Source of the DNA: Escherichia phage mEp506 | DNA: 40,128 bases | Sequence record: PV340542 | Reading direction: 5' to 3' (one strand) | Shown: one piece after another, positions 15,657 to 15,966 of the stretch | How the letters are laid out: the number at the start of each line of letters is the position of its first letter | Numbering within the stretch: the stretch's first letter is position 1 | Notes under the pieces: generated by a model | Databases searched by the model: none | What the model was told of the DNA's origin: nothing | The model's input: the letters and a program-made list of their open reading frames with translations, nothing else | Translations under genes and position numbers: made by a program

Positions 15657-15966
15657 ATGAAGATGCCAGAAAAACATGACCTGTTAGCCGCCATTCTCGC
15701 GGCAAAGGAACAAGGCATCGGGGCAATCCTTGCGTTTGCAATGGCGTACCTTCGCGGCAGATATAATGGCGGTGCGTTTACAAAAACAGTAATCGACGCA
15801 ACGATGTGCGCCATTATCGCCTGGTTCATTCGTGACCTTCTCGGCTTCGCCGGACTAAGTAGCAATCTCGCTTATAATCGGCTACATCGGTACTGACTCG
15901 ATTGGTTCGCTTATCAAACGCTTCGCTGCTAAAAAAGCCGGAGTAGAAGATGGTGGAAATCAATAA
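15657..15966 (+). pseudogene. S: holin S (lambda S107/S105 type) disrupted by a 14-bp deletion
   Basis: ORF 15657..15896 matches lambda S through ...[10 protein letters not shown] then reads NRLHRY-stop; the lambda S C-terminus [26 protein letters not shown] is encoded in a different frame from 15877 to the stop at 15964-15966. Confidence 0.8.

Follow-up and report, generated by a model that had tools for sequence, protein, structure and literature searches.

Holins set the time of host-cell lysis and bring it about. The lambda S105 protein is the prototype of the class I holins, with three transmembrane domains (TMDs) in an N-out/C-in topology, and, as presently modelled, TMD1 and TMD3 touch through their hydrophilic faces before rafts form and the hole opens (PMC10865782). 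The truncated lambda holin of Sam7 gives no lysis: induced lysogens cease dividing while progeny build up inside the cells, chloroform frees these progeny, and supply of a holin in trans brings back plaques (PMC3359269, PMC9927085). Sam7 is an amber mutation in S, present in commercial lambda DNA and in vectors. The gene described here carries a truncating lesion of the same gene, from which a like phenotype is expected, yet Sam7 is a suppressible point nonsense mutation, whereas here a 14-nt deletion shifts the frame at codon 74, cannot be suppressed and leaves TMD2 complete.

In the window (the whole 40,128-nt stretch of DNA that was analyzed), S occupies the same place as lambda S, first in a Q-dependent S-R-Rz/Rz1 cassette. 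Residues 1-73 of its product are nearly identical to those of lambda S (S105/S107), but the TMD3 and the cytoplasmic C-terminal domain of lambda S are lacking, and the phage itself is HK97/HK022-like (Hendrixvirinae), not lambda. A closer counterpart is S of phage HK446 (YP_007112008; NC_019714, 35495-35818), with which the window shares the dual start, a Gly63 polymorphism and the overlap between S and R. The S region of the window is the same as that of HK446 at every base once 14 nt are restored; the HK446 protein has 107 aa and that of the window, which is without TAACGAGCGTGTTC, has 79 aa. The class II holins or pinholins, represented by the two-TMD S68 of phage 21 and its SAR endolysin, are a different case: S of the window has two TMDs only through truncation, its endolysin R lacks an N-terminal hydrophobic segment, and no natural short homologue was found among those inspected.

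The S reading frame and its 14-nt gap

The product of the truncated gene begins with the Met1-Lys2-Met3 dual start (MKMPEK..., from position 15657), the sequence upstream of which is identical to HK446, and continues through TMD1 and TMD2. It follows lambda-family S107 over residues 1-73, after which the frame shifts (following codon 73, Tyr73) and translation ends out of frame with NRLHRY and a TGA stop. The new stop lies at 15894-15896 and the old one at 15964-15966 (Table 1).

Alignment of the region with eight fetched relatives, comprising phages ECP1, HK542, mEpX2 and HK446 and the prophages of E. coli CUPF06, CUPF12, GF4 and Z1323HEC0423, recovered the same single 14-nt gap in every case. 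Going by HK446, the parent allele that is otherwise identical, the bases lost are TAACGAGCGTGTTC; across the relatives they read TAACGAGCGTGTT(T/C). They correspond to the last 2 nt of the Ile74 codon and the codons for Thr75, Ser76, Val77 and Phe78. Alignment with lambda S DNA, which had been proposed as a check, also returned one 14-nt gap at 15876|15877, although this result serves as a lead only.

The comparison with HK446 S gave 401 matches over 415 columns, and alleles identical to that of HK446 occur in E. coli prophages, for example in S163-2, TUM9754 and QL57EC. When the HK446 14-mer was put back at the junction, a 324-nt gene was obtained that is identical to HK446 S at 324/324 positions. 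This exact restoration shows that the gap does not stem from an ambiguous alignment and that the deletion is the sole difference from a working allele. A change of Asp63 to Gly with respect to lambda (15844) belongs to the natural HK446-type allele and is not a second lesion.

Downstream of the junction, the out-of-frame remnant agrees with HK446 at every base, has no start codon of its own, and the ORF list contains no ORF of at least 20 aa that ends at 15966. The first-pass annotation had placed a net loss of 14 nt and a frameshift of S within 15870-15966, with the conserved C-terminus thrown out of frame and the protein ending as NRLHRY, and the alignments, the translation and the HK446 re-insertion uphold it in all these particulars. 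Its likening of the gene to lambda S holds for residues 1-73, but the closest allele is the HK446-type S of an HK97/HK022-like prophage rather than that of lambda.

Recoding or re-initiation as a rescue of the S C-terminus was also considered and discarded: there is no ORF of at least 20 aa in the distal frame, nor is there a slippery run at the junction, and a rescued product would still be five TMD3 residues short.

The prophage and its lysis cassette

Gene order in the window runs from int, xis, recombination genes, N, cI, cro/cII, O, a DnaB-like helicase, the nin region and Q to two tRNAs, S, R, Rz/Rz1, a KilA-N gene, an HNH gene, terminase, HK97-type head genes, tail genes and the tail fibre. 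The closest relatives are ECP1 (98.3% identity over 82% of a 20-kb query) and HK542 (99.3%, over the head and tail genes), both members of the Hendrixvirinae. Both ends of the window (1-75 and 39757-40128) align with the CUPF12 prophage, an alignment that places base 1 some 20 nt away from torS, and base 40128 some 58 nt away from torT. The window therefore spans exactly one whole prophage, sited at the HK022-type attachment site between torS and torT in an E. coli-like chromosome.

Table 1. Coordinates of the late-gene control and lysis genes, of the S lesion, and of the private homopolymer losses in the window.
Feature	Position	Strand	State or change	Basis
Q, late-gene antiterminator	14361..14984	+	intact, 207 aa	Pfam PF03589 (Antiterm), E 1.3e-57
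tRNA-Asn(GTT)	15259-15333	+		ARAGORN
tRNA-Thr(TGT)	15339-15414	+		ARAGORN
S, truncated holin/antiholin gene	15657..15896	+	79 aa	ORF list and translation
Deletion junction in S	15876..15877	+	14 nt absent	alignments with relatives; HK446 allele
S remnant, out of frame	15877..15966	+	distal TMD3 and charged cytoplasmic tail	translation; HK446 identity
R, endolysin	15940..16426 (ATG 15950)	+	intact, 158 aa	ORF list
Rz, inner-membrane spanin subunit	16423..16860	+	intact, 145 aa	Pfam PF03245 (Phage_lysis), E 3.1e-35
Rz1, outer-membrane lipoprotein spanin subunit	16622..16807	+	open	within ORF 16592..16807
int	1112		G5 to G4	
No gene mapped	19078		long G-run shorter by 2-4	
Intergenic	19149		T7 to T6	
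Just past capsid gene	24314		G run, -1	
Intergenic	25830		T7 to T6	
Intergenic	26334		T7 to T6	
Tape measure	29117		A8 to A7	
Tape measure	30012		C5 to C4	
Tail K-like gene	31772		G5 to G4	
End of J	37033		G6 to G5	

Transcription of the lysis cassette, as part of the late transcript, depends on Q; S stands at the head of the cassette, with R and Rz/Rz1 behind it. R has its own Shine-Dalgarno sequence (GGAG, 15940-15943). Rz1 lies inside Rz, read in the +1 frame, with a lipobox and an AGGAG ahead of it, and is presumably the Rz1 subunit by analogy with that of lambda. The exact R protein occurs in 27,688 index blocks of public assemblies, with a 107-aa holin alongside it in 10/10 of the places shown, and the exact Rz protein is found on 19 contigs. 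Among the places shown for the two proteins together, nearly all of the neighbouring holins have 107 aa, one locus (L023) having an unrelated holin of 67 aa instead.

An insert of about 400 nt (15085-15485), not part of the lesion, holds both tRNAs in the late-transcript leader between Q/pR' and S. This module is absent from ECP1, HK542, mEpX2 and CUPF06; the P22-like prophages of E. coli GF4, Z1323HEC0423, LSC52 and EN-1077 carry it at 100% identity, and those of GF4 and Z1323HEC0423 have an intact S. About 80 complete E. coli genomes cover it and, judging from these matches, it represents a mosaic module found across phage morphotypes. Also, a minus-strand segment (5697-6595) between N (4809-5192) and cI (7242-7946) has no match to the fetched relatives and encodes a 152-aa ORF without a Pfam hit and a 156-aa HicB-family protein (PF05534, E 1.5e-18). 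These ORFs may be toxin-antitoxin or moron cargo of the immunity region.

Occurrence of the junction and the nature of the lesion

The occurrence of the junction was assessed by megablast with a 100-nt query centred on it against 5,426 complete E. coli genomes. The stretch is held by 1,145 of these, all of which contain the 14 nt, the matches at 87.7% identity or slightly below corresponding to 100 matches over 114 columns. A 401-nt query did not find the junction among 175 phage records, and of the 100 records that cover this query in full none has lost the 14 nt. Exact scans likewise failed to find the junction 24-mer in the GTDB species genomes, IMG/VR or the JGI metagenomes, or the junction in 27 fetched loci (22- to 24-mers). 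At the protein level, an exact look-up returned no record of the 79-aa S, and the ending ...LAYNRLHRY was not seen in any of the short forms among the best 120 of 1,679 homologues.

Most of the short homologues are gene calls that occur only once, on noisy contigs about 3.5 kb long, in which a lambda S sequence has an altered W56 codon and 1-nt frameshifts. Several of them from ENA (P0064, P0077, P0093, P0103, P0114 and others) have W56 replaced and end in ...NERVYRLHRY, and a big protein database contains dozens of "holin" clusters, each with a single member, that consist of lambda S sequences full of errors. The Sam7 mutation lies at codon 56, upstream of the breakpoint in the window, in agreement with these W56 changes. 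Apparently, the noisy short forms are gene calls on raw long reads of lambda cI857 Sam7 control DNA, and thus database noise rather than natural alleles. One further protein (P0088, 84 aa) occurs on 9 contigs of enterobacterial prophage DNA and likewise lacks the distal part of a lambda-family holin: residues 1-61 of S are fused to an unrelated sequence (VTNGAIVIHTQRLKSDPGGNLLS), suggesting an insertion or deletion breakpoint near residue 61 in S of another prophage lineage. That form, which has another breakpoint and another mechanism, is recurrent, whereas the junction in the window is unique. A shorter functional holin in relatives had been named as a finding that would speak against the loss of function, and no natural short S of the same form was present among the homologues inspected.

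All indels between the window and its relatives were catalogued, about ten of them being private to the window. The homopolymer indels in this set are losses in every case, and no run is lengthened with respect to the relatives. The proportion shortened is 1/288 for runs of length 4 in the relatives, 6/96 for length 5, 2/30 for length 6, 5/11 for length 7 and 6/7 for length 8 or more, some sites being counted against more than one relative. As shortening climbs with run length and no run gains, the pattern is that of homopolymer undercalling, and we read it from the sequence comparison as the base-calling signature of an unpolished assembly, not as gene decay. These losses split int, the tape-measure gene (now in three pieces, 27096-29213, 29201-30022 and 30058-30375), the tail K-like gene (31473-31862/31727-32182) and the end of J, and such interruptions are very probably artefacts. 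They should not be taken as gene loss, and this warning about sequence quality is the more useful by-product of the analysis.

General decay of the prophage would make the S frameshift and the five other seeming gene frameshifts (int 1112; tape measure 29117 and 30012; minor tail 31772; J 37033) all real, and the element defective and cryptic. The number of genes that appear interrupted fits such an account, but the small indels fall in the T-runs of intergenic terminators (19149, 25830, 26334) no less readily than in genes, and losses without gains at a rate that rises steeply with run length are a failure of the base caller rather than a mark of decay free of selection. Also, no in-frame stop codons were noticed in the ORF list, no IS elements or large deletions appeared in the alignments to relatives, and the gene order is complete from int to tail fibre. 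We therefore consider decay of this kind improbable.

The gap in S is of another sort. Lying between ...GCTTATA and ATCGGC..., the 14 missing nt are of mixed sequence, so that the gap is not a change in the length of a homopolymer, and it is the only private non-homopolymer indel in the approximately 33 kb that can be aligned to relatives at 95-99% identity. The earlier judgement that this lesion, unlike the others, is unlikely to be a base-calling error stands on this difference from the single-base homopolymer losses found elsewhere.

As a separate observation, the HNH gene (18436-18789) has compensating small indels (-C, -T, +CC) at 18618-18632 against all relatives. They lie outside homopolymers, preserve the length of the gene and alter about two codons, and they probably reflect natural divergence.

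The breakpoints of the S gap share no base that would constitute microhomology (GCTTATA|TAACGAGCGTGTTC|ATCGGC), and no flanking direct repeat was found that would yield the observed junction. Folding of the parental 68-mer as DNA gave -7.4 kcal/mol (z = -1.0 against shuffled sequences), so that no significant hairpin spans the deleted segment. Since the breakpoints have no base in common and there is no significant hairpin, no simple slippage mechanism is evident, and both repeat-slippage deletion and hairpin excision were discarded as origins of the gap.

It could be argued that the DNA itself has an intact S, the 14 nt having been dropped from the consensus of error-prone, probably long-read and unpolished data. 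About ten run-length-dependent undercalls in 40 kb, deletions only, place the consensus below finished quality. The junction occurs in no other genome, phage or metagenome searched, and uniqueness fits an artefact as well as it fits a private mutation; the surroundings of the gap are base-perfect against HK446, and its breakpoints suggest no evident mutational mechanism. On the other hand, TAACGAGCGTGTTC is not a homopolymer, a tandem repeat or a low-complexity sequence, the other private indels are 1-nt homopolymer losses or, in one long G-run, a loss of 2-4 nt, and the absence of any further private multi-base indel in about 33 kb argues that multi-base dropouts are not a trait of this assembly. 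An error of assembly or consensus is thus a real but distinctly less likely explanation.

We infer instead that the deletion is present in the DNA, and that the lesion is probably a genuine 14-bp deletion, private to this lineage, in an otherwise complete HK97/HK022-like prophage, with a null holin as its product. If real, the deletion would be recent, as the rest of S is identical to HK446.

Predicted consequence for lysis

The S product matches the Pfam family Phage_holin_3_1 ("lysis protein S", PF05106; E 5.7e-19, 68.8 bits with the cut-off at 23.8). The match extends only over protein residues 8-73, on positions 9-74 of the 99-position profile. Kyte-Doolittle hydropathy retains two peaks, centred at about 15-28 and 45-61, and the third, centred at 67-85 in the repaired protein, is lost. 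The loss of the third transmembrane segment claimed in the first-pass annotation is thus supported both by hydropathy and by a PF05106 match that stops at profile position 74. Among the features of a class I holin, S retains the family match, the dual start and the place as first gene of a Q-dependent cassette, and lacks the third of the three TMDs and a charged C-terminal tail in frame. It belongs to the lambda S family by sequence and by position but is without two defining features, and we consider that it should be annotated as a pseudogene.

The fragment would keep the S107/S105 dual start, TMD1 and TMD2 and lack TMD3 and the positively charged cytoplasmic tail, its new C-terminus being expected, by topology, in the periplasm. 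As class I holins need three TMDs, we infer that it would be a null holin like that of lambda Sam7. The requirement for TMD3 is drawn from the three-TMD model (PMC10865782) and from the Sam7 phenotype; no experiment on an S fragment without TMD3 was found in the literature covered. The loss of holin function that had been proposed is in line with the same two sources, and the further claim that the prophage would be unable to lyse its host normally follows from them as a prediction.

Upon induction, the late genes would be expressed, among them those for the spanins Rz/Rz1 and for R, a soluble endolysin. R, which has no N-terminal hydrophobic segment and for that reason depends on large S holes, would be confined to the cytoplasm, so that the cell would not burst and particles would pile up within it. 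For their release, chloroform or another external agent would be required, or else a holin in trans. Lambda-family S genes occur in up to 3 copies per E. coli genome, and the holin of a co-resident prophage could complement the defect. By analogy with Sam7, the predicted phenotype is therefore induction without lysis unless the holin of another prophage complements.

A retained function of the fragment was also considered. A stable 79-aa protein with two TMDs might act as a pinholin-like holin, or else as a new dominant-negative "antiholin" that dimerises with the full-length S of lambdoid phages, whether co-resident or superinfecting, preventing or delaying hole formation. The dual-start motif, TMD1, TMD2 and the upstream region are all intact, and the number of S copies per E. 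coli genome makes partners possible. S105 without TMD1 and several missense alleles of S are reported to be dominant-negative, which favours such a role. However, the allele was seen nowhere else, and none of the homologues inspected is a natural short S of this form, so there is no sign of selection; R lacks a SAR or signal sequence and pinholes would not release it. Moreover, truncations of the Sam7 type are complemented in trans and are thus recessive (PMC3359269, PMC9927085). We regard a retained function in general as very improbable, and give the dominant-negative form of it equally little credence. If the dominant-negative reading were true, the allele would be an early step in the domestication of a prophage gene for host protection.

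The reading of the fragment as a null holin is thus preferred. The allele itself is unreported, while truncating alleles of S and the inactivation of prophages are textbook matters, so that nothing new on holins follows from it. If the deletion is real, the strain is a lysogen with an apparently complete lambdoid prophage that would be inducible yet unable to burst the cell alone, and recovery of the phage from it would be expected to give no plaques or lysis except with chloroform or a helper holin. Such a lysogen would parallel in nature the laboratory Sam7 allele and would show the inactivation of a prophage at its very first step.
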